A DNA stretch of 64,000 nucleotides from an uncultured delta proteobacterium (GCA_963785235.1 CAWAUM010000011.1:224001-288000); one strand, 5' to 3'; positions 8,093-51,507 are shown, numbered from the stretch's first letter. Numbers and translations are program-made. Notes: generated from the letters alone by a model not told the origin.

Positions 8093-8315
8093 AAACCCGG
8101 ATTTTTGCGTTTAAGATGCGTAAAACTTGATCCGCTCAAATCAGTGATCTTGCAGCCTCTGATGAGTTCGCATTTTCCCAGTCCTTCAGGGCTGCAAGAT
8201 CACTGATTTGAGCAAACCTATAAGAAACAATTTATCACCATGAGTCTTATGTGTAAGGCACTCATGGAGTGTTTCGTGTGTTTATGGGTACATTCAAATG
8301 CAAGATCTGTGTTCA
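8093..8315 (+). mobile_element. Hairpin-containing MITE-like repeat, copy A (longest)
   Basis: Ends AACCCGGATTTTTGC ... GCAAGATCTGTGTT. Perfect 24-bp inverted repeat at 8134-8157/8190-8213. CACCATGAGTCTTATG is identical to the reverse complement of 28177-28192. Confidence 0.7.
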
Positions 8316-8333
8316 ACGGTAAAATTAGGGGAT

Positions 8334-8366
8334 AAAAAAGCCCCTGCACTTATCGTGCAGGGGCTT
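8334..8366 (-). terminator. Rho-independent terminator of the pilMNOPQ operon
   Basis: AAGCCCCTGCAC-ttatc-GTGCAGGGGCTT stem, followed on the minus strand by a T run, about 40 nt after the pilQ stop. Confidence 0.85.
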
Positions 8367-8407
8367 GGATCGTTGTTATAATCCGGTGGTATTCTTAGTC
8401 CCAGTGA

Positions 8408-10243
8408 CTAATGCATGGCCACAGGCTCTAGGATCTGGGGTGTTATGAATATCAGGAGTTCCTTCTTGCTCTTTGAATTTGTTGTCCCCTTAAAGAGATA
8501 TCCGAGCACCGGTAGATCACCCAGAAATGGGACTTTTTGAATATTCTCTCGATCTTCTTCCTCGATGATGCCGCCGATGACGCTTGTTTCGCCGTTTTTC
8601 ACCAATACCTCTGTTACAGCTTCACGGGCTGCTATGGAAGGGTCACCCAGCGAATTGTTGATGGAGCCTAAAGAGTTTCTCTTTACATTAACCTCCATAT
8701 TCACGCTCCCGTCAAAGGCTATCCTCGGGGTTACCTCAAGGACGAGATCAATGTCCTTCAATTCGGTTGAAAGCTGGCCTTCTTGGTTTCTGACGATATA
8801 CGGATATTTTTCACCCTGACGGATTACCGCTTTCTTGTTGTCCATGGTGACGATCTTGGGCCTTGATAACACATTCACGTTTCCCGTGGTCTCGCCGATA
8901 TCGAGTCGCAGATCAAGAGCGACTGCAGTGCTGCCAAGACGTCCTACGGAAACGCCGAATCCCGCAGCCTGGTTGGTGGGGAAGTTCACCGCCATGGAAG
9001 GGTTGGGGACTGAAGTGGTGCTCCAGGTGTTACCGGAGCCGGGGAGTACGGTGGTGTTAAAGGGATTTACGGTTGGTCCGGTATTGACACCCGATAGGCC
9101 GAAAAGATATTTGCCTGACTGGTTTCTCGTTGAGCCCCCCCACTGAACGCCGAGACCCCTGGTGAAGTCGCTGTCTGCCTGGATTATCCTGGCTGAGATG
9201 AGCACCTGTGGTGTGGGCTTGTCAAGCCTTCTTACCATGGCGCTGATCTCATCGACACTCCTCTGGATATCTTTTACAATCAGGACGTTGGTTCTGTTTT
9301 CCGCAGTGATATTGCCCCGCTCGGACATGAGTCCTACCTCTTTGCCCTTGATCACGCTGGTGATTTCAGAAGCCTTTGCGAAGTTTACCGGGATGACCGA
9401 GGTGACAAGGGGCTCAAGCTGCTCCTTGGTTTTCTTTGAGGCCAGCTGTCGATCCTGAGCCTGTTTTATCTTGTCTGCAGGGGCAATGCGCACCACATTG
9501 CCCATAACCATCTTATCAAGGTCCTTGCTTTCCAGGACAACATCCAAGGCCTGGTCCCAGGGGACATCCTTGAGCCTTATGGTGATAGTCCCTTTGACCT
9601 CATCAGAGGTTACGATATTGAGTCCGCTCACGTCGGCGATGATCCTTATGATATTGTGGATATCCGCATTCTGGAAATCCAGGGTGATCTTTTCACCTAT
9701 ATACTTAGGGCCGGCATCCGTATTTATGATGTTGCTCTGGAACGGGGGTTCTTGGGACAGACCTTTGATATATGGTGTTTTGGATTCAGAGCTTTCCTGG
9801 TTCTGTATGGTAGCAGTCGTTGTGCCCAGCGCCACGGTCTTTAACGGCTGAACCTTATTCTTGATATCCTCTGGGATATCGAAGTCCATGATAAGGAGCT
9901 TGTTGTCCTGGGACACAAAGTAGGGGGTCATCTGCTTCATGGCAATATCAAAGACCACATCCTCTTTGTCCTGTCTGGGAAGGATCTCCTGAATGGCTGT
10001 TGCAAACTCGGAGGTGATATACGGCCGTGCAAGGCTGTTTGGTATTTTCGCCTTGTTCACCCTCAGCACGATGCTGTTGCCTTCACGGTTCACGTCGTAG
10101 GCAGCCTGTCCGTCAAGGCCGATCTGGAGCCTTGATTTGTTCTCCACATTCATGAAGTCCACACTCTTGATGGTCAATCCGAATGCGGTCAGCGGCATGG
10201 CCAGCAAGCCGATTATGAGTACTAGGATGGTATGTCTCTTCAT
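8408..10243 (-). CDS. pilQ: Type IV pilus secretin PilQ
   Basis: Signal peptide, AMIN-like domain, ITLDFQNADI/VPWDQALD, secretin domain (VPFLGDLPVLGYLF, ELLIFITPQI). Confidence 0.95.
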   Translation of the reverse strand: MKRHTILVLIIGLLAMPLTAFGLTIKSVDFMNVENKSRLQIGLDGQAAYDVNREGNSIVLRVNKAKIPNSLARPYITSEFATAIQEILPRQDKEDVVFDIAMKQMTPYFVSQDNKLLIMDFDIPEDIKNKVQPLKTVALGTTTATIQNQESSESKTPYIKGLSQEPPFQSNIINTDAGPKYIGEKITLDFQNADIHNIIRIIADVSGLNIVTSDEVKGTITIRLKDVPWDQALDVVLESKDLDKMVMGNVVRIAPADKIKQAQDRQLASKKTKEQLEPLVTSVIPVNFAKASEITSVIKGKEVGLMSERGNITAENRTNVLIVKDIQRSVDEISAMVRRLDKPTPQVLISARIIQADSDFTRGLGVQWGGSTRNQSGKYLFGLSGVNTGPTVNPFNTTVLPGSGNTWSTTSVPNPSMAVNFPTNQAAGFGVSVGRLGSTAVALDLRLDIGETTGNVNVLSRPKIVTMDNKKAVIRQGEKYPYIVRNQEGQLSTELKDIDLVLEVTPRIAFDGSVNMEVNVKRNSLGSINNSLGDPSIAAREAVTEVLVKNGETSVIGGIIEEEDRENIQKVPFLGDLPVLGYLFKGTTNSKSKKELLIFITPQILEPVAMH

Positions 10244-10244
10244 G

Positions 10245-10769
10245 CTACTTTACCCCCTCTTCCTTCTTGAGAGCCAATACAACTTCTCGGGTGGTTATGC
10301 GACCCATGTAGTCTTTGAAGTGTTGTTTGATGGTAACGCCGTCTTTTGCAACCCTGGTGACAATTCCATTATTATCACCGATAAGTGTGCCTTCGGTGAT
10401 AATGTATCCCATTCCTGATGAATCCTGGATAAGGGCACGGTTCTGTTTGGAGAGGATAACTCCAACGACATAGACCTGTGAAATGGAGAGCCTCTGGAGC
10501 GCATCCGGACCCTTATCGCTACCCTGGCCTATCTCACCTGGGTTGATACCCGCGAAGGGCTGGAAAGGGTCGCGAATGCCTATTATTTGGTATTCCGGTT
10601 TTTTCTCTTCCTCCTGGACAAGCACCGGTGTAACCACTTCAGCCTTTTTCTGGGTTGCGGGATGCGGGGGCTGACCTGTTGTACCTGTTGACGGCTGCTT
10701 GCAACCTGGCAAGGCGAAGAGCACTCCGGTCAAAAGCACGATCAGGAAGGAGTAGATAATTCTTTTCAT
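10245..10769 (-). CDS. pilP: Type IV pilus lipoprotein PilP
   Basis: Lipobox-like LPGC, RDPFQPF motif; lies between pilO and pilQ. Confidence 0.88.
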   Translation of the reverse strand: MKRIIYSFLIVLLTGVLFALPGCKQPSTGTTGQPPHPATQKKAEVVTPVLVQEEEKKPEYQIIGIRDPFQPFAGINPGEIGQGSDKGPDALQRLSISQVYVVGVILSKQNRALIQDSSGMGYIITEGTLIGDNNGIVTRVAKDGVTIKQHFKDYMGRITTREVVLALKKEEGVK

Positions 10770-11383
10770 TTCTTCCCTCCTTTAGCTGCATCCGCAACTG
10801 GTGGTTCGGGCTTTGCCGTTTCAATGAACTTATAGGTAACGGCCTTGCAGGACGTGGCCACCATCGTACCGCCCGCGGGGTCTTTTTTAGGGGTGCCTGT
10901 AGAGATGTCCACGATGTTGACTATCCTGGGCATCCTGGAAACATTGTTAAAGAAGGTTACTATGTCGCGGTATTTCCCCTCAACCTGGATATCTACCGGG
11001 ATCTCAGCAAAAAAGTTCTTGGCAACCTCGGGCAAGGGTTTGAAAAGTTTAAACTGCAACCCCGCTGCTGTCCCCAGCGAGGAGACATTTTCCAGCAGTG
11101 TCGGTATTTCACTTTTATCAGGGAGTTGTTTCAGGGCAATGTAGAGCTTGGCCCTTGTTTGTTCAAGTTCGGCAAGGTACCTGGCTTTTTCCTTTACGAT
11201 CACCTTTTTGGCTGCAAGCTCGGACTTGAGTTGATTCAACTCCGGCTCTATGGTCCTGATATCGGTGAGTACCGGTTTGTAGAATACCTGCCAGTAGACA
11301 CCGAGGATTGCAGCCAGGATGACCACGAGGACAAGCACCTTAATAAGCGCTTTCTGTCGTAAGAGTATATCGATTATATTCAT
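10766..11383 (-). CDS. pilO: Type IV pilus assembly protein PilO
   Basis: TM helix plus LPDKSEIPTLL and MPRIVNI motifs. Confidence 0.92.
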   Translation of the reverse strand: MNIIDILLRQKALIKVLVLVVILAAILGVYWQVFYKPVLTDIRTIEPELNQLKSELAAKKVIVKEKARYLAELEQTRAKLYIALKQLPDKSEIPTLLENVSSLGTAAGLQFKLFKPLPEVAKNFFAEIPVDIQVEGKYRDIVTFFNNVSRMPRIVNIVDISTGTPKKDPAGGTMVATSCKAVTYKFIETAKPEPPVADAAKGGKK

Positions 11384-11391
11384 AATCTACC

Positions 11392-11925
11392 TCAGGCTGA
11401 CAACTTAATCGTGCACGTGATGGAAAACTTCTGTTTGCCCCCTTCTTGTTGAGAGAGCACAAGGGTCACATTATCGAAATGCTTGGATGCCTGAAGCTGT
11501 TTCATGAATGTGGCAATGGTGGTATTGTCCACTGCCTGACCTTCTATCACCATGCTGTCGCCCTTGTTGCTCAGAGAGGTGAGCCATGCCTTATCGGGGA
11601 TTATTGTGCTCAATTCATCCAGTACTTCCACCGGGCCGGTTTTCTTGGCATTGAGGTCTTGGATTACATCGAGCTTTTTTTCCAGCTCCTGTTTTTGTTG
11701 TTTGAACTTTTCGATCTCGCCGGCTTCAACGGTGAGCTTCTTGATCTCTATCTTTGTGGCTGCAACTTCCCTTATGAGGGATTCCCTCTGTGATACAATA
11801 GAGGCTTGGACGAACCATTCAAAGATGAGCGTGAGAACAACACAGAGGCCTATAAGGACTATATGCTCCACCAGGGCCTTTTTCCTCAGTTCCAGCCGGA
11901 TGGGTAATAGATTTATCTTTACCAT
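11392..11925 (-). CDS. pilN: Type IV pilus assembly protein PilN
   Basis: INLLP motif, TM helix and coiled coil. Confidence 0.92.
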   Translation of the reverse strand: MVKINLLPIRLELRKKALVEHIVLIGLCVVLTLIFEWFVQASIVSQRESLIREVAATKIEIKKLTVEAGEIEKFKQQKQELEKKLDVIQDLNAKKTGPVEVLDELSTIIPDKAWLTSLSNKGDSMVIEGQAVDNTTIATFMKQLQASKHFDNVTLVLSQQEGGKQKFSITCTIKLSA

Positions 11926-12977
11926 TTATAGTCGGCCCTCCTTAATGCAAGGCCCACGGCCACAGCCATCTGTGGTGCGATATAGGCCATATATTCCGGG
12001 TCAAACACCCTATCGTCCCATTTGATATTATTAAAGGGATTGACCACCTCAACCGGGATCTCCATCTGTTTCTCCAGCAGCTTGACAAGACCTGGTATCT
12101 TGCTGGATCCGCCACTCATGTAGATCTTCTCGATATTCTCATTGACCATGGTGGACAGGAAAAAGTCCAGTGTCCGCCTGATTTCCTGGACATAGGTTTC
12201 TGATGCCATCTTAAAGATGTAGTTGATCTTCTCAAGGTCGATGCCCTCGATGTTCGCCCCGGTCTTAATGTTCTCAGCCCGTTCGTAACTCACGCTGAAT
12301 TCGCGCTGGATCCTCTCTGTAAGCTGTCTGCCACCCATGGAGATGTCACGTGCAAAGATCGACATGCCGTCTTTAATGACATTGATGTTGATCATGGAGG
12401 CTCCGGCGTTCACGAGCGCCACAATAGACTCCGTAGCATCCGGGTAGTTGACTTCATACATGCTCTCCAGGGAGAAGACGTCGATGTCCATGAGCATGGG
12501 CTTTAAGCCGGCATTCTTTACGGCTGAAGAGTAATCATCAACCAATTCCCTCTTGGCGGCTACGATGAGCACATCCATCATGTCTGTTCGCTCCAGGCTC
12601 TCGCCTAAGATGAAGGAGTCAAAATAGACATCGTTAATATCAAAGGGTATATACTGCTCCGCCTCAACAGGGAGTGTCTGTCTGAGTTCAGCTTCGCTCT
12701 GGAGGGGGAGTTCGGCCTTTTTCACAATAACGGAATGGCCGGATATTGCAGTGGCCGCGCCGCGGGACCTCACCTTCAGGTTTTCCCTGAGGTTCTTGAT
12801 GGTATCCACCACGGTCTCAGAATCCATAATATCCTTGTCTACGATACACTCGGCAGGGATCAGGCCAAGCCCTAAGGCCTTAAGCTGGTAGCCGCTTCGT
12901 GTCTTGGCTATATCCACCATCTTGATGGATTGTGAGCCGATATCCAAACCAAGCAGATTTTTTTCAAAAAACATCAC
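11919..12977 (-). CDS. pilM: Type IV pilus assembly protein PilM
   Basis: GLDIGSQSIK, EAEQYIPF, SGGSS and VAVGLALR (FtsA/PilM fold). Confidence 0.95.
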   Translation of the reverse strand: MMFFEKNLLGLDIGSQSIKMVDIAKTRSGYQLKALGLGLIPAECIVDKDIMDSETVVDTIKNLRENLKVRSRGAATAISGHSVIVKKAELPLQSEAELRQTLPVEAEQYIPFDINDVYFDSFILGESLERTDMMDVLIVAAKRELVDDYSSAVKNAGLKPMLMDIDVFSLESMYEVNYPDATESIVALVNAGASMININVIKDGMSIFARDISMGGRQLTERIQREFSVSYERAENIKTGANIEGIDLEKINYIFKMASETYVQEIRRTLDFFLSTMVNENIEKIYMSGGSSKIPGLVKLLEKQMEIPVEVVNPFNNIKWDDRVFDPEYMAYIAPQMAVAVGLALRRADYKW

Positions 12978-12989
12978 ACCACCCCGCGA

Positions 12990-13313
12990 TCAAGACTTTT
13001 TCTTTTTGAACACTACGATGGTATCTCCGGATCTCACCAAGTTCAACTCCTTTACGATCACATGCTCGATGTATGCCATGTTGTCTTTGAGCATAGTGGC
13101 TTCCTGCATCAGCGAAGCATTTTCCTTTTCGAGCGCTGCAGTTCGATTTTTCAGAGTAGCAAGCTCGCGGTGGAGTTGATAACCTCGAATGATCCCCTTC
13201 TCGCCTGGAAGAGTGAACACGAGCAGTAACGCAATAACCAAGATCAAACCAAAGGTTAAGGAATGCGTAACTGTCATTGTGTTTACTATACTCCATTTGT
13301 ATTGGGATCGCAT
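12990..13313 (-). CDS. Septum formation initiator (FtsB/DivIC family)
   Basis: TM helix, GEKG, coiled coil and YIE..(KELNLVRSGD) C-terminal pattern. Confidence 0.75.
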   Translation of the reverse strand: MRSQYKWSIVNTMTVTHSLTFGLILVIALLLVFTLPGEKGIIRGYQLHRELATLKNRTAALEKENASLMQEATMLKDNMAYIEHVIVKELNLVRSGDTIVVFKKKKS

Positions 13314-13466
13314 TAAAAATCAGTTCTTCCCTATGCATAGCCTATCTATCGGGAAGGGGAAAGTGAATCTTTAGGAAAATATCAAATTGGTAACAGAGGT
13401 TGTCGAGGGAATAGGAATTTGGCTTGCCGGGTTACGATGTCGTAATGATAGTTCCCATTGTGATGG

Positions 13467-14120
13467 TCATCTTGAGAACCGGTAATGGATCCCTGTGCCC
13501 AAACCCAGAAGAAAGCCGCCAATATGGGAAAACCACGCCACCGAACTTGCAGAGTGCATACTGAGGTACCCATGTACACCCTGGATGAAGAACCAGATGA
13601 GGATGAAGATAATGGAAGGGACCTCAATAATCTCAATCAGCAGAATCAATGGGATCAATGTAAGAATACGACCCTTGGGGTTCAGGATAAGATAGGCCCC
13701 CATGACGGCTGCAATGGCACCTGAGGCGCCCACCACAGGGACGGATGACTGGGGATTTATTATGGTGTGTGCATAGAAGGCTGCAAAGATTGCAACGATA
13801 TAGAAGAGCATAAAGCGAATTACTCCCAGATTCTTTTCCAAGGGCGGGCCGAAGACTGACAAGAAGATGAGATTACCGATGAGATGGATGTAGCCTGAAT
13901 GGATGAACCCCGAGGCAAGAATGGCCGTATGTACCTTTAAAAAATTTGTATTGCCTACGATGAGGTACCCGGCAATATCAGCAGGGCTTACGCGAAACAT
14001 ATGAAATAGCTGTTCGCCGAGCCTGATCTCCTGAATGAACATAGCTAGGTTCAAGATTATAAGACAGGCGGTTGCTGGGGCAAAACCTCTGGGGGCGCTT
14101 GTGTCCCGGACGGGGATCAT
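13467..14120 (-). CDS. Rhomboid family intramembrane serine protease
   Basis: MIPVRD start, FIHSGYIHLIGN, catalytic GASGAI and HIGGF. Confidence 0.92.
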   Translation of the reverse strand: MIPVRDTSAPRGFAPATACLIILNLAMFIQEIRLGEQLFHMFRVSPADIAGYLIVGNTNFLKVHTAILASGFIHSGYIHLIGNLIFLSVFGPPLEKNLGVIRFMLFYIVAIFAAFYAHTIINPQSSVPVVGASGAIAAVMGAYLILNPKGRILTLIPLILLIEIIEVPSIIFILIWFFIQGVHGYLSMHSASSVAWFSHIGGFLLGLGTGIHYRFSR

Positions 14121-14188
14121 GGGTGAAGCAATACCATGAAAAGATCTATGGGGCAAGGTGATCGCATTATGGTATATATGTACTTGCC

Positions 14189-14407
14189 ATGAGACAACTC
14201 GGGACCCCGCTTATCTTTGCCGGTATCATAGTGATACTTCTGGGCATCTTTTTTAGTATGGGAGGCAGCTTATCCTGGCTGGGAAGGTTGCCCGGCGATA
14301 TGAGGATTACAAGGCCGGGCTTCAATTTCTATTTCCCCATAACAACGTCCATATTTTTAAGCATCATAGTCAGCCTGGTGCTGTACCTTATCAGGCATTT
14401 CAGATGA
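14189..14407 (+). CDS. DUF2905 family small membrane protein
   Basis: LGRLPGD and FYFPITTSI motifs. Confidence 0.85.
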   Translation: MRQLGTPLIFAGIIVILLGIFFSMGGSLSWLGRLPGDMRITRPGFNFYFPITTSIFLSIIVSLVLYLIRHFR

Positions 14408-15675
14408 GAGATGTGTCTTTAGACAACTTCATTGCATGGTTTGTTCGCATGAACTCAAAGGCCAGCTTTACCTTTGATGAAGGGGGGAGAGCATTTCATC
14501 CGGTTGCACCTTCTCATCCGGTTAATCTTTACATCCACATTCCATTTTGCGTGCAGCTCTGCCCGTACTGCTCTTTCCACCGTTATCAATTTGAAGAGGG
14601 TGTGGCCAGGGAATATTTCCTGGCATTGAGACAGGAGTTGCAGCTCTATGCGCAGAAGGGTTTTTGTTTCTCATCGGTCTATATAGGGGGCGGAACCCCA
14701 ACGGTCCTGATGGATGAGCTTTTTTGTACCATCGGGCTCATCAATACCCTGTTCTCTCCGGCAGAGATTTCTGTAGAGACAAACCCGGACCGTCTTGATA
14801 AAGGGCTCCTGGCTTCTCTTGCCAATGCGGGGGTGGGAAGGGTATCGGTGGGCATCCAGAGCTTTTCTGACGAGATCTTGAAGGCTATCGGGCGATATGA
14901 AAAGTACGGCAGCGGAGATGAACTGGCCCACAAGGTCTCAGAGGCAATGGGTATTGTGGAAACCTTGAATGTGGACATGATATACAACTTCCCCATTCAG
15001 GACTCCTCTATGCTCGAACATGACCTCAGGACACTTCTGAAGATTCTCCCGGACCAGGTCACCTTCTATCCTCTTATGATATCCCAGGCCACCCGTGCTC
15101 AGATGGAAGGTATCATGGGGAAAGGCAGCCCTGAGACAGGGAGGTTTTTTTATGCCATGATTACATCAGAGCTTGAATCTGTGTATACGCCAAATTCAGC
15201 GTGGTGCTTTTCCCGGGGCGGTGCACCCATGATCGATGAATACGTGGTTGGCGGCCAGGAGTACGCAGGAGCCGGTAGCGGTGCCTTTGGTCTGGTGAAT
15301 GGGGTAATGTATGCGAATACCTTTTCACTACCAGAGTATGTGAAATCGATAAAATCCTCTAAGCTGCCCATCAAACATGCCAAGACCTTCTCGCGCCATG
15401 AAATGGCCCGCTACTGCCTTCTCATGAACCTTTTCGGACTCAAGCTTGATCTCGGATTATTCAGACAACGTTTCGGGCATTCCGTGTGGAGGCTGCTCGG
15501 GCCGGAGATACTCTTTTTTATTCTGGCCGGGGCTTTTCGCATAACACCCGGACAGATAAGCCTGACCAAGCGTGGGCGATACTACTGGGTCATCATGATG
15601 AGAGAATTCTTTACCGGTGTGGACAATTTTCGTGATGCAAGCAGGGAGGCTGTTCTCCTTAAAGCAGGCGATTGA
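14404..15675 (+). CDS. HemN-like class C radical SAM enzyme, probable menaquinone methyltransferase (MenK/MqnK type)
   Basis: LYIHIPFC-x3-CPYC and GGGTPT motifs, plus QVTFYPLM, IDEYVV, GSGAF and NTFSL, which are typical of the MenK/MqnK subgroup. Confidence 0.8.
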   Translation: MRDVSLDNFIAWFVRMNSKASFTFDEGGRAFHPVAPSHPVNLYIHIPFCVQLCPYCSFHRYQFEEGVAREYFLALRQELQLYAQKGFCFSSVYIGGGTPTVLMDELFCTIGLINTLFSPAEISVETNPDRLDKGLLASLANAGVGRVSVGIQSFSDEILKAIGRYEKYGSGDELAHKVSEAMGIVETLNVDMIYNFPIQDSSMLEHDLRTLLKILPDQVTFYPLMISQATRAQMEGIMGKGSPETGRFFYAMITSELESVYTPNSAWCFSRGGAPMIDEYVVGGQEYAGAGSGAFGLVNGVMYANTFSLPEYVKSIKSSKLPIKHAKTFSRHEMARYCLLMNLFGLKLDLGLFRQRFGHSVWRLLGPEILFFILAGAFRITPGQISLTKRGRYYWVIMMREFFTGVDNFRDASREAVLLKAGD

Positions 15676-15715
15676 AGTGACCCCTGCATAGCCTTCCAGA
15701 CATTTTGTTGCGAGA

Positions 15716-15805
15716 GGAAAAAACCTTACCCGTTCAAAACATGCATCTTGGTGAAACCAAGATGCATGTTTTGAACGGGCCAATTTTTGGTTTGCATCTC
15801 AAGGA
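15716..15805 (+). repeat. Hairpin repeat, copy B
   Basis: Perfect 23-bp inverted repeat at 15729-15751/15757-15779 with loop TGAAA; flanks match copy C in the opposite orientation. Confidence 0.85.
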
Positions 15806-15845
15806 TTCTTTTGTTGTGAAATGTTCTGATGAGGGTAAAAAGCCC

Positions 15846-17192
15846 TCAAGCCGACTCACTGTCAAGCTTCTCAATGAGGAAATCAATCTCCCGCTTCACC
15901 TTGAGGTTCTGTGTGTACTGGGCCTCGATTGTCTCTAGGGAGTGGATGACAGAGGAGTGCTTCCGGGAGAAGGCCTCGCCAATGATCTGCAGCGGCTCCT
16001 CAGTATAACGTCTGCACAGGAAGATAGCCACCTGGCGTGGATATACGATGTCCTTCTTCCGTGAAGGTGAGACAATCTTGTCTTTGGGTATGGAAAAATT
16101 TTTCGAGATGAAATCAAGAATATACGGGATGTTTATCCGCTGCTGTTTTTCCAGGGTCCCTTCAAGGAGTTCCCGGGCAAGCTCCAGGGTGATCGTACGC
16201 TTCATGAGAGAGCTCATGGCGGAAATGGTCATCACCGCACTTTCCAAGTCCCTGATGCTGGTATGGATGGTATTGCTCATGAACTCCACCACCTCATCGG
16301 GCATGCTTACCCCGTTCTTTTTTGCCTTGTGGCGGACAATCTTGGCCCTCGTTGTCTTATCAGGGCGCTTGATATCGATAACGAGCCCAGAAGATAAGCG
16401 TGACCTGAGTCCCTTGTCGATCTGGGGTATGGAAGTGGGCGGACGGAAGCCCGAGAGGATCACCTGCTTGCCCGCACTGATGAGGTCGTCAAGCACATGG
16501 CATAATTCAACCTGGGTCTTTTCCTTATTTTTGAAGAGATGGACATCATCAATAAAAAAGATATCCATGTTTTGGCTTCGGTATGAGCTTTTGAAGGAAC
16601 TGAGAAAATTGTTTCTCACCGAGTGGACATAATCCTGCGTAAAGTCCCTGGCTGTAGTGTACCGCACACTGGTCCCATTGCGTAATGAAACGAGCTTGTT
16701 CCCTATGGCATGGGAGATGTGGCTCTTTCCAAGACCCACATCGGAATAAAAGTACAGAGGGTTATACCGGCGCAGATCCCCTTCGGAGACCGCAAGTGCC
16801 GCCTCATAGGCAAAGGCATTGCATTTGCCCACTACAAACTCGTCAAAGGTGAATTGGGCATTGAGTCCGGATGAGGCCGGCGTTGGAAGATGTGAGGGCA
16901 GGCTCATCTGAATGGGAAGGCTATCAGCCTGCGCCGGCCTTTGTGCCTGATGCTCGCTGAGAGGATTTACGCAGAACTCAACATCTGCCGGTCTGCCGAG
17001 ATGAGACCTGACAGATGAGATGATAAGATCTTTATAAACCCGGGATATATGCCTCTGGGCAAAGACATTGGGACAGCGGACAAAGACAGTGCCATCCTCC
17101 TCACAGATATCGATCTGGTCTATGAGCGCCCTGTCCGATGCGGCATGCGACATTGAGAGAATAGATTCTTTAATAATTGCAAAGTGATTCAC
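15846..17192 (-). CDS. dnaA: DnaA-family replication initiator, divergent paralog
   Basis: FTFDEFVVG, YNPLYFY-GLGKSH, FIDDVH, LRSRL, IRDLE; domain IV PRQVAIFLCR...RKHSSVIHS; GTG start; no adjacent dnaN. Confidence 0.85.
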   Translation of the reverse strand: MNHFAIIKESILSMSHAASDRALIDQIDICEEDGTVFVRCPNVFAQRHISRVYKDLIISSVRSHLGRPADVEFCVNPLSEHQAQRPAQADSLPIQMSLPSHLPTPASSGLNAQFTFDEFVVGKCNAFAYEAALAVSEGDLRRYNPLYFYSDVGLGKSHISHAIGNKLVSLRNGTSVRYTTARDFTQDYVHSVRNNFLSSFKSSYRSQNMDIFFIDDVHLFKNKEKTQVELCHVLDDLISAGKQVILSGFRPPTSIPQIDKGLRSRLSSGLVIDIKRPDKTTRAKIVRHKAKKNGVSMPDEVVEFMSNTIHTSIRDLESAVMTISAMSSLMKRTITLELARELLEGTLEKQQRINIPYILDFISKNFSIPKDKIVSPSRKKDIVYPRQVAIFLCRRYTEEPLQIIGEAFSRKHSSVIHSLETIEAQYTQNLKVKREIDFLIEKLDSESA

Positions 17193-17415
17193 AAAAAACC
17201 CCCACAGAGAGTAAATTCATAGTTAACGGGTGACATAATGGGTCTAGTGAAAAAAAAGGTCAAAGGTGAAACACCCCGGTTATAGGTAGACCGTGTTAAT
17301 TTTGTGTAAAGGGAAATAACTATAGTAATATTAATAACATGAATAGCGGATCGCGACATTCAGGGCATCTGGTGGCACCCGTTCAGGACTCTGGTCGTAC
17401 CTGGTTCCGGAAGTC

Positions 17416-17436
17416 TTATCTACATTTTGTAGAAAA
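17416..17436. promoter_or_regulatory. Inverted pair of DnaA-box-like 9-mers
   Basis: TTATCTACA (17416-17424) and TGTAGAAAA (17428-17436; reverse complement TTTTCTACA), compared with consensus TTATCCACA; upstream of the dnaA paralog. Confidence 0.4.
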
Positions 17437-17450
17437 CTGATGAGCTCTTA

Positions 17451-18885
17451 TTATCTTGATCTTTCTTTGAAAACTTTGAGATTACGATAGATGAGTGAAT
17501 ACTGCCCGGCAGGTTTTGCCCAGCTCACATCGAGTTCCATTGCATTGCTTATCATAGCATTAAGCAGGTCTCTCTCATCTTTAAAGATTCTGCATGCCTG
17601 TGAGACCGCATGCAGCAGTGCTTCCGTGTCTGGGGTAGGTCACCCGCAGGCCTGTGGGGTTATCGCCTTCGCCAAGGGCAGTGACCGTATCCCGTAAGCC
17701 CCCTACACCGGTAACGATGGGGATGGTACCATAGCGCATGCTGATCAGCTGGTTTAGCCCGCACGGCTCGAACCGGGAAGGCATGAGAAAAAAATCAGAT
17801 CCTGCCTCGATGGCATGGGCCTTTGTCTCATCGAACCCTATGAAGATACCGACCTGTCCGCCGAATTCCTGATGGAGTTCGGCGAGTTTGCGCTCAAAGG
17901 CAGGGTTCCCGTTTCCGAGAATGACTAATTTGGCACCCATGGCCGCTATCTTCGGGATGGCATCCAGTACGCAATCGATGCCCTTCTGCTCAACGAGGCG
18001 GCTGATGAGCCCGAATACCGGGGCGTCGTCAAGGGCCAATGAGAACATCTCCAGTAGAGCCCTTTTGCACAAGGCCTTGCCCTTTAAATCCCTTGCAGAA
18101 TACTGAGAAGCTATGAGGATGTCTTCAGCCGGATTCCATGTATCGATATCTATGCCGTTGGCAATACCGGTGAGCTTATATGAAATGGCTTTGAGGAGCC
18201 CATCGAGGCCGCTTCCGAACTCACTTGTCTGGATCTCCTGGGCATAAGTGGGGCTCACGGTATTCACTGCATCGGCAAATATAAGCCCGGCCTTCATGAT
18301 GTTTATCCTGCCATAATATTCCATGGCATCAGGGTGGAATAACTCGTGCGGCAGGAAGAGCATGGACCAGAGTATGGCATCGAAGAGGCCCTGGTAGGCT
18401 AGGTTATGGATGGTGAACAGGCTGCCGACCTTCTCGATGCCTGCGTCTTTCATGTAGGCAAGCACCAGGGCTGTCTGCCAGTCATTGCAGTGGACGATAT
18501 CCACATCACCCATGAGCCTGATCATCTCCACACATGCCCGCGAGAAGAAGGCGAAGCGCTCGAGGTTATCCGGATAATCGTAGCCCGCAAAGGAATACAG
18601 ACCTGTCCGGTCAGAGAACAGCGGATGCGAAATGAAGTAGGTCGTGCCATGCGAGAAGATCTTCGCTTCCGAAATCCCCGTTCCGGTGAGGACCGATATA
18701 TCGCCATGGGGCTTCAGTGCAAGTCCCATGTTCATGACTTCACGGTACAGCGGCATCACCACGGAACAATCAATACCCTGCCGGTTAAGCTCGGCAGGCA
18801 GGGCCGCGCTTACATCCGCCAGTCCCCCGGTCTTTGCATACGGAGTGACCTCGGATGAACATACCAATACCTTCATAACAGCCAT
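17451..18885 (-). CDS. glgA: Glycogen synthase (frameshift in a C4 run near 17633)
   Basis: KTGGLADV, HCNDWQT, TIHNLAYQG and PSRFEPCGL. The conserved tail AMELDVSWAKPAGQYSLIY continues in another frame to TAA at 17451. Confidence 0.93.
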
Positions 18886-18935
18886 AGTTTATACCATACA
18901 CTAAGAATGGTCGGGCAGTAAAGACAAGGGAGTAC

Positions 18936-19233: not shown

Positions 19234-19243
19234 AGCTGAGTTC

Positions 19244-28073: not shown

Positions 28074-28113
28074 TGCCAGAAAAATAGTATACACAAGATC
28101 GAGAAGTACCTTT

Positions 28114-28253
28114 TAATCTGGAGGTTGCAGTTGAAAGTGCCCATGAGCACTCCATGCCCTTCGTGAGCGGCTTAAGCATAAGACTCATGGTGGTGATCTA
28201 TAATATTTTAACGGATTAAGTTTTAACACATCCTGAATGCAAAATCCGGGTTA
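28114..28253 (-). mobile_element. MITE-like repeat, copy F (hairpin mostly lost)
   Basis: Imperfect terminal inverted repeats TAATCTGGAGGTTGCA / TGCAAAATCCGGGTTA (12/16 match); collinear with copy A on the minus strand. Confidence 0.65.
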
Positions 28254-32538: not shown

Positions 32539-32654
32539 ACGTTCCTCCACATGAATGGTGAGAGCACAATTAACACAACACCTCCCCTTCGTCCAGTCCC
32601 CGTTCCCGCGTATCGAACCGTACATTCCAAGATGATATACATCTTAAATATTTC

Positions 32655-32740
32655 TTCAGATACAAACCAAAAATTGGCCCGTTAAAATCATGAATCTCGG
32701 TGAAGCCGAGATTCATGATTTTAACGGGTAAGGTTTTTTT
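32655..32740 (-). repeat. Hairpin repeat, copy C
   Basis: Perfect 23-bp inverted repeat at 32678-32700/32706-32728; flanks are the reverse complement of the copy B flanks. Confidence 0.85.
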
Positions 32741-32864
32741 ATCCGAGACCCTTTCCGGAATTGTGCAAAGCTCTTAACTTTTGTAACTGCATTGGTGTCC
32801 CTGAGGTCTCTTCAGGCTCTTTGCGCTTGCATTTCATGGCCATATTGATATGTAAGGGGACACT

Positions 32865-40972: not shown

Positions 40973-40990
40973 AAATTAAGGGGTATTTCC

Positions 40991-44007: not shown

Positions 44008-44016
44008 TCTTCTCTC

Positions 44017-45610: not shown

Positions 45611-45634
45611 CTCGTCTTCATCTCCAGATAAGTA

Positions 45635-46185: not shown

Positions 46186-46319
46186 CAGACCGACAGACGT
46201 TTCCGTCCCTTGGCCCTCCTCCGGTTGATGACGAGCCTTCCACCCTTGGTGCGCATACGAATCAGGAATCCGTGCGTACGTTTCCGCCTGGTATTGTGCG
46301 GTTGAAATGTGCGCTTCAT
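46185..46319 (-). CDS. rpmH: 50S ribosomal protein L34 (absent from the supplied ORF track)
   Basis: Translated by hand: [44 protein letters not shown]. Confidence 0.97.
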
Positions 46320-46447
46320 GAATTACCTCAATTTCTTATAGTTTTGAGCGGTAAGTATTTACATGCAGGGTAGGCCATTGTCAAGCAACAAAAGGCACTA
46401 TGGCTTCTCCTTGTCAGACACTGGCCTTGTACGCTATAGCTCACATC

Positions 46448-47116
46448 ATGCAAAGGGTATTCTGCAAACGCGAGGTGACCCATGGTCTGGACAGGGGTCC
46501 TGATGCCGTATCCGCAAGGCTCGCTGAGCTCCTGCCGGGCAGCCGTATTGTCTGCCTGGCGCAGATTCATTCGGACAGGATCGTAAGGGCCGAGGATATC
46601 CCCCCCGGGGTGTTCCCGGAGGCGGACGGGGTCATTTCTCTGGACCCGTCCCTGGTGCTGTGCATCCGCACTGCCGACTGCGTACCGCTGCTCATGTGGG
46701 CGGAAAATACGCCAATAATCGCAGCGGTTCATGCCGGATGGAAAGGACTCGCGAAGAAGATTGTCTCCAAAACAATCGATCTCATGCGCGCACTAGGCGC
46801 GCATGAGATCCATGTAAGCATGGGGCCATCCATCGGGCCATGCTGCTATGCCGTGGGGACAGAGGTCATTGAGGCACTTCAGACCGGGCCTGACCGACAC
46901 TTTGGTGGAAGGCTTTATGTGGATCTGCACCGCATCTCGGCGCTGCAGGCCAAAAACGCCGGCGTATCGCCTGATATGATCCATCAGGTGCAGGCCTGCA
47001 CCTACTGCAACAGTGACTCGTTTTTTTCCTACCGGAGAGAAGGGGAGCATACCGGCAGGAACATATCGCTCATCGGAGGACTCTCATGCTCGTTGCCGGG
47101 CTTACAGGCTCTATAG
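46448..47116 (+). CDS. pgeF: YfiH/PgeF family protein
   Basis: QIHS, ADG, TADCVP, HAGWKG, GPSIGPCCY and FFSYRR. Confidence 0.9.
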   Translation: MQRVFCKREVTHGLDRGPDAVSARLAELLPGSRIVCLAQIHSDRIVRAEDIPPGVFPEADGVISLDPSLVLCIRTADCVPLLMWAENTPIIAAVHAGWKGLAKKIVSKTIDLMRALGAHEIHVSMGPSIGPCCYAVGTEVIEALQTGPDRHFGGRLYVDLHRISALQAKNAGVSPDMIHQVQACTYCNSDSFFSYRREGEHTGRNISLIGGLSCSLPGLQAL

Positions 47117-47703
47117 CCACCGGGAAATCCACGGTTTCGGGTATCCTGAAGGAACTTGGTGCATTCATCGTGGATGCAGACCGTGCAGCCCATGAGGTAG
47201 TTCTTCCGGGTACGAAGGCATGGAACGAGATAGTTCGGATCTTCGGTAAGAAAATATTGCAGAAATCCGGCGAGATAGATCGGGAACACTTGGGTCGTAT
47301 CATATTCAACGATTCAGCCATGCGAAGCATCCTCGAGGAGGTCGTCCACCCCGAGGTTATGCACTCCATGGACGAGCAGATCAGATCCATCACGTCGGGT
47401 TTCCCCGATGCAGTAGTGATCCTTGACGTGCCGCTGCTCATTGAGACGGGCATGCATAAAGGGGTAAGCGAGGTCATCGTGGTATATTGCCCTGAAGACA
47501 TGCAGATAACGCGGCTCATGATCAGGGACAATATCAGCAGGGAAGAGGCTCTCACAAAAGTCCGCGCCCAGATATCCATTGAGGAGAAGAGGAACTATGC
47601 CTCCTTGCTCATCGACAACAGCGCTTCAAGGGACAATACCAGGAAGCAGGTGAAGAACACCTATAATCGTATCAAAGAAAAGGCAGGAGATGCTCAAGGG
47701 TAA
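47086..47703 (+). CDS. coaE: Dephospho-CoA kinase
   Basis: GLTGSIATGKST, VDAD, HP and DVPLLIE. Confidence 0.95.
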   Translation: MLVAGLTGSIATGKSTVSGILKELGAFIVDADRAAHEVVLPGTKAWNEIVRIFGKKILQKSGEIDREHLGRIIFNDSAMRSILEEVVHPEVMHSMDEQIRSITSGFPDAVVILDVPLLIETGMHKGVSEVIVVYCPEDMQITRLMIRDNISREEALTKVRAQISIEEKRNYASLLIDNSASRDNTRKQVKNTYNRIKEKAGDAQG

Positions 47704-47726
47704 AGGAAGCAATCGGGGCATGCCCT

Positions 47727-48629
47727 TTATCGCTTGATGGGCTGTTTGGCAGGGGGGGCTACGGTCTTTTTTATTACGATCGGAGGTTTTTCCGACAATC
47801 CGGCATCCAGGAGTTCTTTGTCAAGATCCGACAATTCATCTCCTTCCATGGCTTCGGCCACTGGCTCATCAGTATCCTCTGGGGTTATCCCCAGTGCTGC
47901 CATCTCTTTGCCGATGAGCGCTTGAAAACTCTTGGCGTCCCTGAAATGAGGGTTTATCTCAAGGGCTTTTTTCAGCCATACCAGGGCATTATTCCATTCC
48001 TTTATGTCATAATAGATCCGCGCGATATTGAAATAGAGGTGCTCGTCCTGGGGTGAGATGGTAATTGCCTTCTGATAGTTTGCCAGGGCCTCTTCCAGCA
48101 TATTGGCCTTTCTCAGTTCTATTCCGAATTCATTGAAGATATGTTTGTTATCTTCTTCAAAGATGGCCTCGACCTCGGAGAGCTTTCTGAACACGTCCTT
48201 TGCTTTTGCGGTATCACCCATCTCCATGTACAGGGTCCCTATACCGAAGTTGGCCCTGATGCTTTCGGGGTCTATCTTCAATGCATTGGTATACTCGAAC
48301 TCAGCCGAAAAGAGCTCGCCCCGTGCCCTTTGTTTTTCAGCCACGGCCACATGCCGGTCGTGCTCAGCCTCATTTTTTGTCTTTACCCGGTAGTTGGGGT
48401 CAAAGGTATATCGTTTCAGGAACTCGTCATAGGCGATTTCTATGACAATGCCGGTGGGTTTTCCTTCGTTGCCCAGGAAGCTTAGTTTGACCTTTTCACT
48501 ATCAATCTGTTCGGCCTGGCAATAGTTCTTCATCTTCTGGTTCTTCTGAGTATGACCGGTCCCCAGGGTAATGGTGGATTCTTCGAAAAAAACTCCTTGA
48601 ATTTTCTTGACGTATTTTGTTTGGTCCAT
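47727..48629 (-). CDS. TPR protein
   Basis: TPR helices (ANFGIG, FNEFGIELRK, LYFNIAR, ALEINP) and an acidic tail. Confidence 0.8.
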   Translation of the reverse strand: MDQTKYVKKIQGVFFEESTITLGTGHTQKNQKMKNYCQAEQIDSEKVKLSFLGNEGKPTGIVIEIAYDEFLKRYTFDPNYRVKTKNEAEHDRHVAVAEKQRARGELFSAEFEYTNALKIDPESIRANFGIGTLYMEMGDTAKAKDVFRKLSEVEAIFEEDNKHIFNEFGIELRKANMLEEALANYQKAITISPQDEHLYFNIARIYYDIKEWNNALVWLKKALEINPHFRDAKSFQALIGKEMAALGITPEDTDEPVAEAMEGDELSDLDKELLDAGLSEKPPIVIKKTVAPPAKQPIKR

Positions 48630-48752
48630 ATTTTTTTATTATCGGTTCTTCATGCACAGAAGTTTACATAATATCATGACCAGAACCGGAGGTTGACGCA
48701 TGAGCATGTAATATGGCAACCCTATGAAGTATCACGTACATGGTAAGGGGGT

Positions 48753-49562
48753 GTGATGAAACCGATCGGCTTTATCGGCGCAGGGAATATGGCAGAGGCG
48801 ATTATCTCAGGATTGATAAAGAAAGGCCTGATAAACCCCCAAGAAATCAAAGTATTCGACATCAAGCCGGAACGTATGGATCATTTGTGCAGCGTTTTGA
48901 GCATAGAATGTGCCGCATCCATGCAGGAGCTTGTCCGCTCGCGGGATATTGTAATACTCGCAACCAAGCCCGACCAGATATCGACCCTGCTGCAAGGCAT
49001 TAAGGGATCTCTCGCCGGGAAGCTCATCATAAGCATAGCAGCCGGCGTAACATTGAAAAGCATGCTTGATGTACTAGGGCCACAGGCCAGGATAGTGAGG
49101 GTGATGCCCAACACGCCGGCCCTGGTGCTCGAAGGTGCCACAGTACTTGCGGCTTCATCATCATGCACAGAACAGGATAAAGAGATTGCAAAGGAGATCT
49201 TCTTTGCTGTGGGCATATGCCTTGAGATGGATGAGAAATTCATCAATGCGGTCACGGCCCTTTCAGGTTCGGGCCCGGCCTTCTGCTTCCTGTTCCTGGA
49301 GGCGATGTGCGATGGGGCGGTAAAGGCCGGTCTGCCGAGGGATGTAGCCCTACGGCTTGCAGCCGCAACCATGAAGGGGGCTGGTGCAATGGTCCTCGAA
49401 CTCGGGAAGCACCCGGGCCAGCTCAAGGACATGGTAACCTCTCCTTCCGGCACAACCATTGAGGGGATATCCGTTCTTGAGTCAAAGGGTTTTCGCTCAG
49501 CCGTTATAGAGGCAATAACCGCAGCCTATAAGAGGGCAGAGATCATGTCGGGGAAGGGTTGA
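48753..49562 (+). CDS. proC: Pyrroline-5-carboxylate reductase
   Basis: GFIGAGNMA, RVMPNTP, SGSGPAF and VTSPSGTT. Confidence 0.96.
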   Translation: MMKPIGFIGAGNMAEAIISGLIKKGLINPQEIKVFDIKPERMDHLCSVLSIECAASMQELVRSRDIVILATKPDQISTLLQGIKGSLAGKLIISIAAGVTLKSMLDVLGPQARIVRVMPNTPALVLEGATVLAASSSCTEQDKEIAKEIFFAVGICLEMDEKFINAVTALSGSGPAFCFLFLEAMCDGAVKAGLPRDVALRLAAATMKGAGAMVLELGKHPGQLKDMVTSPSGTTIEGISVLESKGFRSAVIEAITAAYKRAEIMSGKG

Positions 49563-49586
49563 TACCTTAAGACTCCTACCATGCTC

Positions 49587-49614
49587 TAAATCTCGGCTTG
49601 TAAATCTCGGCTTG
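49587..49614 (+). repeat. 14-bp tandem duplication next to hairpin copy E
   Basis: TAAATCTCGGCTTG repeated twice. Confidence 0.8.
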
Positions 49615-49673
49615 AAAAACCTGTCCTCTACAGAATGATCATCTCGCCATGCGAGATGATCATTCTGTAGAGG
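49615..49673 (+). repeat. Hairpin repeat, copy E (divergent)
   Basis: Perfect 23-bp inverted repeat at 49625-49647/49651-49673 with loop CAT; 14/23 identical to the copy B arm; preceded by AAAAACCT as in copies B, C and D. Confidence 0.75.
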
Positions 49674-49721
49674 CTAAATAAAGCTTACTTGCAGCAGACA
49701 ACAGGGTATCTAAGGTTATTA

Positions 49722-50375
49722 TTAATACACCTTTGAATTCTTGATGATCTCCACGGCGTCTCTCGGCGAGTCCACCAGTGTATAGATGGACCTGTCTTCA
49801 GGCAGTATCATGCCGTCTTCCAGCATGGTGTCCTCGATCCATTCAAGCAGGCCGGCCCAGTACTGTGAACCTATCATGATCACCGGGAAGGGCTTGAGCT
49901 TGTCGGTCTGGATCAGGGTGAGGGCCTCGAAGAGTTCGTCCATGGTTCCGAATCCGCCGGGGAAAATGACATAGCTCATGGCATACTTGACAAACATGAC
50001 CTTGCGCACGAAGAAGTAACGGAAATTGATGTGTATGGTGGTATAGGGGTTGGACTTCTGTTCAAAGGGCAGAACGATATTCAGCCCCACTGACTGTCCT
50101 CCTGCCTCATGGGCCCCTTTGTTTGCCGCCTCCATGATGCCCGGGCCGCCACCTGTTATTACCGAGAATCCTTCATTGGCCAGCATCCGTCCCAACTCTT
50201 CGGCCATGTTATAATACTTGTCTCCTGGTTTTGACCTGGCAGAGCCGAAGATTGTTACTGCCGGCTCCAGGGGGGACAATTGCTCGATGCCGTCAACGAA
50301 CTCGGCCATGACCCTGAAGACCCTCCACGATTCCTGTGGTTTGATCTGGTCGATGATATATTTCTCGCTCTTCAT
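49722..50375 (-). CDS. LOG family protein (TIGR00730-like)
   Basis: FGSAR, TGGGPGIMEA, YFFVRK and PGGFGTMDE. Confidence 0.92.
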   Translation of the reverse strand: MKSEKYIIDQIKPQESWRVFRVMAEFVDGIEQLSPLEPAVTIFGSARSKPGDKYYNMAEELGRMLANEGFSVITGGGPGIMEAANKGAHEAGGQSVGLNIVLPFEQKSNPYTTIHINFRYFFVRKVMFVKYAMSYVIFPGGFGTMDELFEALTLIQTDKLKPFPVIMIGSQYWAGLLEWIEDTMLEDGMILPEDRSIYTLVDSPRDAVEIIKNSKVY

Positions 50376-50445
50376 GGAAGCTCTCCTTAAAGAAACTCAC
50401 AATCAATTGCCTTATCGGCATTGAGAGTGGTAGGATTTATCAGTC

Positions 50446-51306
50446 GTGTACGACCTCCACATCCATACATCACATTCTTCAGACGGGCAATACGGGCCTG
50501 GCGAAATCCTGCGTATGGCTAAGGCCTGCAATCTGAAAGGCCTGGCCTTTACCGATCATATGGACACCTCTGCCGTGGCTGAAGGTATACGCCTGGCCCC
50601 TGCATACGGACTGAACTTTATTTCCGGTGTGGAGCTCTCAACCGTACTCCATGACCGGGAATATCACCTCCTGCTCTATGGGTTCCACCCGGATAATAGG
50701 ATAATAAAAGCCTTTCTTGATCAGCACTGCCGGGCCATCTGGGATAAGGCCCTTGAGGTACTCAATGTATTCAATCAGATGGGTTTTGATATCAGGAAGG
50801 ACGATATCCCGTCATGGGGCCTCTCGGTGCCCACCGGGGTTACCTTTCTCAATGCGCTGATCAAGAGGAACCAAGGGGACAAGAGGCTTCAGGAATACCT
50901 CTGTGGGCACAAGGCGTCCTCTCCATATCTGAACTTCTATAAGGATTATGCCCTGACTGATATCGGAACCATGGTACGCTCCGCCTTGCCGGATCTCATA
51001 GAGACCATGCGGCTGCTTAAGGACTCCGGCGTGTTCATCCTCGCCCATCCCGGCAATACAAGCAATACTATTTTGAAGGAATTGAAGGGTGAAGGTCTTT
51101 GCGGGATCGAGGTCTACAGCACTCATCACACAGCCCGGATAATGGAGCATCTAGTGGAAGAGGCCAGGTCGCTGAATCTTATGGTAAGTTCGGGATCCGA
51201 TTTCCACGGAGAGTTTATCAAACCGGGCATCGGTCTTGGTGATTCATCCGGGGAGCCTGATGATCAGCTCATCACTATGATTTTAGGCATGACCGCAAGA
51301 GGATAA
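50446..51306 (+). CDS. PHP domain phosphoesterase
   Basis: DLHIHTSHSSDG, FTDH, GVELS, LAHP and GSDFHG. Confidence 0.9.
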   Translation: MYDLHIHTSHSSDGQYGPGEILRMAKACNLKGLAFTDHMDTSAVAEGIRLAPAYGLNFISGVELSTVLHDREYHLLLYGFHPDNRIIKAFLDQHCRAIWDKALEVLNVFNQMGFDIRKDDIPSWGLSVPTGVTFLNALIKRNQGDKRLQEYLCGHKASSPYLNFYKDYALTDIGTMVRSALPDLIETMRLLKDSGVFILAHPGNTSNTILKELKGEGLCGIEVYSTHHTARIMEHLVEEARSLNLMVSSGSDFHGEFIKPGIGLGDSSGEPDDQLITMILGMTARG

Positions 51307-51339
51307 TGAATAGGACCGCTTATGCAATTCTGATGGTCT

Positions 51340-51507
51340 TAAGCAGAGTACTCATAGTGAACATGGAATTGTCTTTTCATAGGTCCGTTCAAAACCTGCA
51401 TCTTGCAGCTTTGAAGGTCCGACAGAATAAGCATAGAGAAAAGGCTGCAAGATGCAGGTTTTGAACGGATAAGGTTTTTACACCTCGTAACCGCAAAATC
51501 TGTCTTA
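51340..51507 (-). mobile_element. Hairpin-containing MITE-like repeat, copy D
   Basis: Perfect 26-bp inverted repeat at 51384-51409/51444-51469 with a 34-nt spacer; flanks collinear with copies A and F. Confidence 0.75.

Follow-up and report, generated by a model that had tools for sequence, protein, structure and literature searches.

The 64,000-nucleotide window analysed here (C11:224001-288000 of assembly GCA_963785235.1, contig CAWAUM010000011.1) belongs to the genome of an uncultured delta proteobacterium, G000 (3.91 Mb in 13 contigs), and carries five long hairpins, A to E. We consider it probable that each of these hairpins forms the palindromic centre of a miniature inverted-repeat transposable element (MITE), that such elements entered the genome of an ancestor shared by G000 and its sister species G011 (~95% identical in orthologous DNA), and that the complementarity of the arms reflects copying at the DNA level rather than a need for RNA folding. 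G000 contains about 90 elements of this kind. A preliminary description had taken A to E for a single family of dispersed intergenic repeats; dispersed and intergenic they are, but they represent three different elements: a long MITE (A and D), a short MITE (B and C) and a single-copy insertion (E). The stem of the long family reads TCCGTTMAAA-(variable box)-ATCTTGCAGCCTT and encloses a loop of about 28 nt. The decisive evidence comes from the comparison of orthologous copies between G000 and G011. Mismatches in one arm were later removed, in part of the cases with the new base on both arms, and loops were inverted in place, while whole cores, composed of the variable box and the loop, were replaced by those of other copies.

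Orthologous hairpins in two sister species

G011 has 20 distinct long-family loci, 14 of which have an intact core in both genomes; at the remaining six, the G000 site is truncated, empty or different. Together with A, these 14 loci provided 15 long-family pairs for comparison of the loops. Four loops are inverted in place, five have the same orientation and six are too different for their orientation to be judged; in these six pairs, the box and loop resemble those of another sub-family. After inversion, the loop comparison of A gives 74 identical positions out of 81, and the three other inverted loops (L013, L018 and L022) are 75-94% identical, with 91-94% for L018 and L022.

The arms show 26 mirrored stem-pair differences, distributed over eight of the 14 loci. 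At the loci of direct descent, about seven mirrored changes were seen (two in A, one in L022, two in L030 and two in E), compared to about 0.3 independent complementary pairs expected by our own estimate from 6% divergence per site and about 250 pairs. The MITE of A is also present at the orthologous site in G011, where the hairpin core is inverted and the arms differ by two mirrored changes: GTT/AAC became GCT/AGC in G000, and CTT/AAG became CGT/ACG in G011. No donor for these variants was found among the G000 copies. The arm core of E occurs at one locus in each genome, and its orthologues differ by two adjacent mirrored pairs, CCTCTACAG/CTGTAGAGG in G000 versus CCTGCACAG/CTGTGCAGG in G011, with no other difference in the arms. 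The G011 orthologue of C differs by a single T>C in the left arm, which the right arm does not compensate, indicating that fresh, uncorrected mismatches also exist. Moreover, deletions between short direct repeats have removed hairpins. In G011, the MITE of D is kept, and about 85 nt including the hairpin are gone between two TTTT runs; in G000, the hairpin of L014 was lost between GAAGGA repeats.

Between the two genomes, the outer parts of the MITEs have an identity of 0.44-0.95, compared to 0.82-0.98 for the unique flanks, and this faster divergence suggests that copies exchange sequence over the full length of the element. The loops range from 0.59 to 1.0. Despite the divergence of loops and outer parts, the arms remain paired at 25-26 of 26 positions in most orthologues. 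These data bear on the idea of a recent burst, in which the copies would be perfect because they were newly made from perfect masters. Such a burst would fit the common box and loop of the sub-families, as well as the narrow distribution over two of 41 genomes. However, it is already contradicted by the orthologues, in which loops and outer parts have strongly diverged around arms that still pair. The insertions are older than the split of G000 and G011 (14 of the 20 loci are common to both), the arms have undergone mirrored changes since then, and the dimorphic stem sites occur in all combinations. We hold a recent burst to be next to impossible.

Mobile element families and their distribution

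A hairpin scan of G000 (loop <=110 nt, score >=15) found 176 hairpins, 115 of them perfect and most belonging to a few families. A second search used nhmmer profiles of the flanks alone, thus avoiding circular ascertainment by the hairpin itself, and revealed 88 left flanks of the long family, 67 with an intact hairpin and 21 truncated or hairpin-less. Long-family copies span about 150-250 bp, typically ~220 bp, with 39 nt on one side of the hairpin and about 100 nt on the other. Their ends are CCCGGATTTTGCG...CGCAAAATCCGGG, and the target duplication is A+T-rich and 5-6 bp long. The terminal inverted repeats (TIRs) CCGGATTTTGCG / CGCAAAATCCGG are recognisable at both ends in 20 of the 67 copies, and 5-bp A+T-rich direct repeats stand outside the ends of several copies in G000. 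The short family comprises 17-22 copies of about 150 bp, with the stem CCYGTTMAAAWCATGMATCTYGG, a loop of 3-5 nt, and the outer parts ...CCAAACATTTTGTTGCGAGAGG and GGTTTGCATCTCAAAAAT...AGGTTGTGCAATGGTC. Its end consensus, AGACCATTGCACAACC / GGTTGTGCAATGGTCT, is seen in the alignment but degenerate. The target duplications of B and C are not clean, and the ends of B/C and of E are unlike those of the long family and poorly defined.

The outer parts of the long and short MITEs have nothing in common in blastn beyond one 7-mer, whereas the inner flank (12 nt) together with the arm (23 nt) is identical at 28 of 35 positions, and the arms of D and B at 21 of 23. All three elements contain a common module that consists of an A-run, CCTKA, a 23-29-bp stem starting with YCCGTTMAAA, the loop, the mirrored stem, CCWA and a T-run. 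Several low-copy hairpins are built to this design as well. The homology of the flanks claimed earlier holds within A/D and within B/C; between the pairs and for E, only ~12 nt beside the stem are alike. We infer that the conserved base and top of the stem are held by some sequence constraint, whereas the middle box of 6-7 bp is free to drift. G000 also harbours a third hairpin family, ACCGTWMAAA...GAGTTCC(TC), whose loops measure 1-4 nt, at C10:220802-220848, C10:18778-18828 and C3:429611-429661. It has conserved flanks of only about 10 nt (TTGA / CTAAG) and often adjoins long-MITE ends.

The long-core pattern was searched in 41 genomes, namely G000, G011, 12 other congeners and 27 more distant relatives, and gave 52 matches in G000, 31 in G011 and none in the other 39. 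A global scan with one genome per species yielded 50 stretches. Of these, 31 come from G011, and among the 19 others three are true members and 16 are unrelated palindromes. The three additional members reside in a 'Proteobacteria' metagenome-assembled genome (MAG), on a 1.6-kb contig binned with a Methanothrix MAG, and at a contig edge in an 'Actinomycetes' MAG; the latter two are probably mis-binned. Empty sites were found in G002, the next relative (91-94% identical to G000), which lacks B, C and E at the orthologous positions: the site of B measures 11 nt compared to 158 nt in G000, while 208 nt are absent at C and 150 nt at E. In addition, the locus L029 has a full element flanked by ATTAAA in G011 and a single ATTAAA in G000, forming a clean filled/empty pair. 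The narrow distribution, the empty sites in G002 and the pair at L029 indicate that the hairpin elements are mobile and were inserted in the lineage leading to G000 and G011. At L015 (G011:C19:10500-13700), a long MITE faces a short MITE in the same spacer of G000 (C3:296732-297132), the rest of which is unalignable; the two elements were inserted independently, or one replaced the other at a hot spot. Both families appear undescribed and restricted to the two sister species; a narrow literature search found no paper describing them.

The preliminary description had proposed non-autonomous repeats resembling either MITEs or REP elements. The TIRs, the target duplications and the empty sites bear out the MITE identity. 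The other identity would make the hairpins REPINs, i.e. doublets of repetitive extragenic palindromic (REP) sequences mobilised in trans by a REP-associated Y1 transposase (RAYT, of the HUH type). G000 does have two RAYT-like genes identified by PF01797, one of them a 175-aa open reading frame (ORF) in L001, and REPINs are described by Bertels & Rainey (2011, PMC3116915) as long hairpins with common compensatory changes. As dispersed intergenic hairpins of similar size, they are the nearest bacterial precedent for hairpin repeats with such changes. However, the 3.3-kb loci around the two PF01797 genes contain no member of the present families, and the inverted repeats beside the L001 gene belong to another repeat, of the TTGTCATTCTGTCATT.../GGGAATGACA type. 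REPINs are free of TIRs and target duplications, consist of two REP palindromes and flank a RAYT. None of these features was found here, where the elements have TIRs and target duplications and, as judged by eye, single arms without a palindrome of their own. We therefore regard a REPIN identity as very improbable. In L001 (1185-1282 and 1471-1998; G000:C11:74615-77950), the 175-aa RAYT-like Y1 gene is preceded by TGTCATTC.../GGGAATGACA repeats with CCCGCGAAAGCGGG cores, a family dispersed in G000 (e.g. C1:76351-76421 and C10:22027-22097). This repeat and the Y1 gene are probably the true REP/RAYT system of G000. Integron attC sites were also considered and dropped, as the elements occur dispersed rather than in cassette arrays and lack extrahelical bases.

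The ends of the long MITE are suggestive of an IS1380-family transposase as its partner. In ISfinder, elements of this family reportedly have ends that start with 'CC' and produce 4-5-bp duplications. Profile NF033539, used to search for the transposase, scores above the cut-off in six of the 41 genomes, none of them in the genus. In the same-class genome of L097, a 1694-bp element around the NF033539 match has the ends CCTGGATCTTGCAAGTG / CCTGAATTTTGCAAGTG. At L094 and L096, also from same-class genomes, CCCGGATTATTC lies about 158 nt upstream of an IS1380-family gene. Like IS1380-derived MITEs, the present elements are short, non-coding and multi-copy, with TIRs starting with CC, a 5-6-bp duplication and similar ends. 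Unlike them, they reside in genomes in which no IS1380-family transposase was found, and B/C and E have other ends. In G000, none of the long-family end pairs 300-6000 bp apart encloses an obvious insertion sequence, and no short-family end pairs occur 400-4000 bp apart.

Arm copying and other readings of the stem pairing

Within G000, the 26-bp arms of 62 flank-found long copies were compared after anchoring on the stem top. Thirty-eight copies are perfect, 16 have one mismatch and eight have more, so that the perfect self-complementarity described earlier is the rule throughout the genome but no law. The 58 copies ascertained by their flanks comprise 1508 pair cells, of which 1484 are Watson-Crick, six are G-T and 18 are other mismatches. 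The reported lack of any mismatch or wobble is correct for A to E, but a few mismatches, G-T included, occur genome-wide, and five copies made a weak argument. The arms of B and C differ at four of 23 positions, as reported, and those of B and E at 10 of 23 on recounting, rather than nine. The 38 perfect long copies represent 26 stem haplotypes. In the short family, 342 of 345 pair cells are Watson-Crick and 12 perfect copies represent 11 haplotypes. Variable pairs of the long family are mainly transversions, namely C:G/A:T at positions 6, 12 and 15, A:T/T:A at position 10 and T:A/G:C at position 13; as these switches have no wobble intermediate, there is no G-U route between the common pairs. 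In both families, the dimorphic sites combine freely, on both arms each time.

The sub-families have a common box and loop, such as the CAGTCAT box with the TAAGGACCGGGAAAATTAGCATTCTCCT loop. The two loop orientations, judged by the asymmetric flanks, occur 41:19 in the long family (two unclear) and 8:7 in the short family. No strand rule emerged: tested against GC skew, the loop state splits 36:24 (p=0.16), in tandem contexts it splits 13:13 relative to transcription, and MITE orientation is 35:25 (p=0.25). In the long copy at G000 C1:594686-594773, the loop has become a near-palindrome (44-bp stem, five mismatches, no loop), as if the stem had been extended into the loop by a template switch; the loop of its G011 orthologue is normal.

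Alternatively, the hairpins could serve as bidirectional terminators, mRNA 3'-end stabilisers or RNase III substrates, with selection removing imperfect copies and compensatory substitutions restoring the pairing. The stems are very stable, an A-run precedes and a T-run follows the stem in all families, and long copies lie between convergent genes in 28 of 71 cases, compared to 19% of intergenic spaces. Nevertheless, the T-run begins 4-6 nt past the stem, and a terminator consensus scan of 7000-17500 calls neither A nor B. A canonical intrinsic terminator (8338-8366, minus strand; 12-bp G+C-rich stem followed by TTTTAT) stands downstream of the secretin gene and adjoins A, which is therefore not needed as a terminator. 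Positions between divergent genes are occupied by C, by 11 of 71 long copies (16%) and by six of 20 short copies (30%), and the loops show no orientation preference relative to transcription. The pair switches are mostly of the transversion type, without a wobble route, and the mismatches are six G-T against 18 others. E acquired two adjacent mirrored pairs as a single copy within about 5% divergence, and hairpins have been lost without visible consequence, from D in G011 and from the copy at 28113-28251. Rfam has no family at the gathering score in the window; the best sub-threshold matches are generic miRNA-precursor models, which score 26-37 bits where 90-120 are required. The hairpins are unlikely to act as terminators, and we think it improbable that RNA structure in general accounts for the pairing. 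The earlier proposal of maintenance at the DNA level instead of RNA selection is supported by the in-place inversions, the mirrored changes, the changes in E without a paralogue, the transversion-type switches and the lack of a link between loop orientation and transcription.

Template switching during replication would produce arm copying of this kind. In an intra-strand switch, one arm would be copied from the other, and in a cross-strand or ectopic switch through both arms, the loop would be inverted or replaced. Ripley and Lovett are said to have worked on template switching at quasi-palindromes in E. coli. Minute hairpin-loop inversions in chloroplast non-coding DNA, with recurrent flips independent of phylogeny, were reportedly described by Kelchner & Wendel in 1996. 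The loop flips here are likewise recurrent, but the chloroplast cases reportedly concern an organelle, single-copy sites, much shorter stems and no mobile element. According to Monttinen & Loytynoja (2022, PMC8794818), template switches fix stem pairing, introduce multiple compensatory changes at once and invert loops; loop length is kept, and the source and the target are located in the two different halves of the stem, at equal distance from the loop. Loytynoja & Goldman (2017, PMC5453318) is a further study of template switches. The loop inversions of L018, L022 and A and the two adjacent mirrored pairs of E show this pattern. Like the published template switches, the G000/G011 orthologues show complementarity from single events, several compensatory changes and length-kept loop inversion. 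The published substrates are mostly rRNA, miRNA, human mutation clusters and engineered E. coli reporters, whereas the substrate here is ~90 MITE palindromes with 23-29-bp stems, whose events are frequent enough to be visible at about 5% divergence and go together with core replacement between copies. Among the mechanisms suggested earlier, template switching or arm-to-arm conversion agrees with these data, whereas no evidence requires hairpin-primed copying.

Another possibility is that the module moves or homes as an independent cassette, with a hairpin-recognising enzyme that inserts, excises and exchanges it at a specific site (between CCTKA and CCWA). This would explain the presence of the module in unrelated MITEs, its occurrence in either orientation and the core swaps. 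The high identity of the module across families with unrelated outer parts fits this possibility, as do the cores swapped between orthologues while the outer parts remain orthologous, the resemblance of the stem base YCCGTTMAAA to a recognition site, and a hairpin-less copy at C1:784844 with the near-precise junction AAACCTGG|TCCTATTTT. However, no candidate enzyme is linked to the elements, and the two Y1-transposase genes are not flanked by these hairpins. The ragged losses at short direct repeats (TTTT for D in G011, GAAGGA for L014) fit slippage rather than precise excision, the fast divergence of the outer parts means that exchange exceeds the module, and E was altered on both arms without a donor. 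We give such a cassette only a slim chance. A selfish version of it seems similarly doubtful, in which the palindrome with its conserved recognition base would be copied among loci and unrelated MITEs, and would be kept perfect and flipped by an enzyme dedicated to processing hairpins or cruciforms, supplied by the host or an unseen element. If it were true, the MITEs would be mere carriers, and the fast mirrored evolution of the box would be a by-product of active copy-and-repair instead of passive replication slips.

Several points weigh against MITE palindromes maintained by template switching, which we nevertheless prefer. The data show the products that switching would leave, and recombination between the arms, or cruciform/SbcCD-type processing followed by repair, would give the same products and is inseparable from template switching here. 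Many of the mirrored differences between orthologues are variants common in the family, and may thus represent replacement by another copy; arm-to-arm copying also occurs, because E is single-copy and the variants of A are private. The conservation of stem base and top across families is unexplained by passive copying, and the enrichment between convergent genes leaves room for some RNA-level or terminator benefit. As to the mobile element, NF033539 has no match in G000 or G011, which are 93% and 88% complete, respectively. The partner was assigned from end similarity alone, for which a 13-mer with <=3 mismatches is expected about once per 4 kb. A 15-mer search with the short-family ends (<=3 mismatches) gives about the chance number of matches in G000.

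The window elements and the record of palindrome evolution

All five perfect inverted repeats reported earlier were recovered at their positions with arms 100% complementary, and the ORF map together with Pfam annotation of the neighbours confirmed that each is intergenic (Table 1). They are the five longest of 13 inverted pairs revealed by an inverted-repeat search of the window. Perfect inverted repeats of at least 14 bp form six axes, whereas 100 shuffles that preserve the dinucleotides average 0.02 and never exceed 1. Folded as single-stranded DNA, A to E reach -26.7 to -31.8 kcal/mol (z -9.5 to -11.1), which none of 200 shuffles equalled.

Table 1. Positions of the MITE copies, their ends and their hairpins in the window
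Feature	Position	Strand	Description
Element A, long (~220-bp) MITE copy	8095..8311	+	between TPR protein gene and secretin gene
A left end	8096-8109		CCCGGATTTTTGCG
A right end	about 8298-8311		ATGCAAGATCTGTG
A hairpin	8134-8213		arms 8134-8157 and 8190-8213, 24 bp, 32-nt loop
Element B, short (~150-bp) MITE copy	15678..15828	+	putative ends GACCCCTGCATAGCC (15679-15693) and TTGTTGTGAAATGTTCT (15811-15827)
B hairpin	15729-15779		24 bp, 3-nt loop
Hairpin-less long MITE copy	28113..28251	-	both ends and both outer parts; 11-nt left arm remnant TCCGTTAAAAT
Element C, inverted short MITE copy	32610..32817	-	within 208-nt segment; family-conserved part about 32627-32776
C hairpin	32678-32728		23 bp, 5-nt loop; between divergent leuS and transglycosylase gene
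Element E, ~150-nt single-copy insertion	49573..49718	+	inverted ends CCTTAAGACTCC ... GGGTATCTAAGG
E hairpin	49625-49673		23 bp, 3-nt loop, central; between convergent proC and LOG-family gene
Element D, inverted long MITE copy truncated on long side	51318..51506	-	end CGCAAAATCTGTC at 51492-51504
D hairpin	51384-51469		26 bp perfect (29 at 97%); between PHP-domain gene and secretin gene

The hairpin-less copy is a sixth member in the window, added here through a left-flank nhmmer match at C11:252218 on the minus strand. B occupies the convergent gap between the stop codons of a radical-SAM gene (15675) and dnaA (15846). The dnaA gene corresponds to ORF 15846-17192 on the minus strand, with Bac_DnaA and Bac_DnaA_C domains, and its stop codon is 18 nt from the end of B. 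The cumulative GC skew has its minimum near the window start, and the replication origin is therefore probably close to the window start and dnaA. One G011 contig starts within hairpin B. Just upstream of hairpin E, at 49587-49613, a 13-nt sequence (AAATCTCGGCTTG) is tandemly duplicated in G000 and single in G011.

Twenty entries from public runs contain part of the window, all of them contigs and none raw reads. Four of these, compared at 88% similarity, gave short contigs of relatives and no read-level view of loop heterogeneity. Two contigs (X3 and X4) join 51310 to 51539/51540 with 33-34 other letters between, and one X4 contig changes strand at 49599/49668 within the palindrome of E. Neither feature was used, as at this similarity other organisms or assembly at a palindrome may be responsible.

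The elements are ordinary in kind, and the phenomenon itself is already published; what is added is a pair of apparently undescribed MITE families that show it unusually clearly. Mirrored, or 'compensatory', changes are usually read as proof of a functional RNA helix, and here they arise without sign of RNA function, so that covariation-based RNA discovery in repeat-rich genomes can be misled. The interest lies in a countable record of palindrome evolution. About 90 long stems in one genome, together with an orthologous set about 5% away, form an unusually clean natural archive of bacterial palindrome evolution, in which loop inversion, arm-to-arm correction, core replacement and hairpin loss can be counted against each other.

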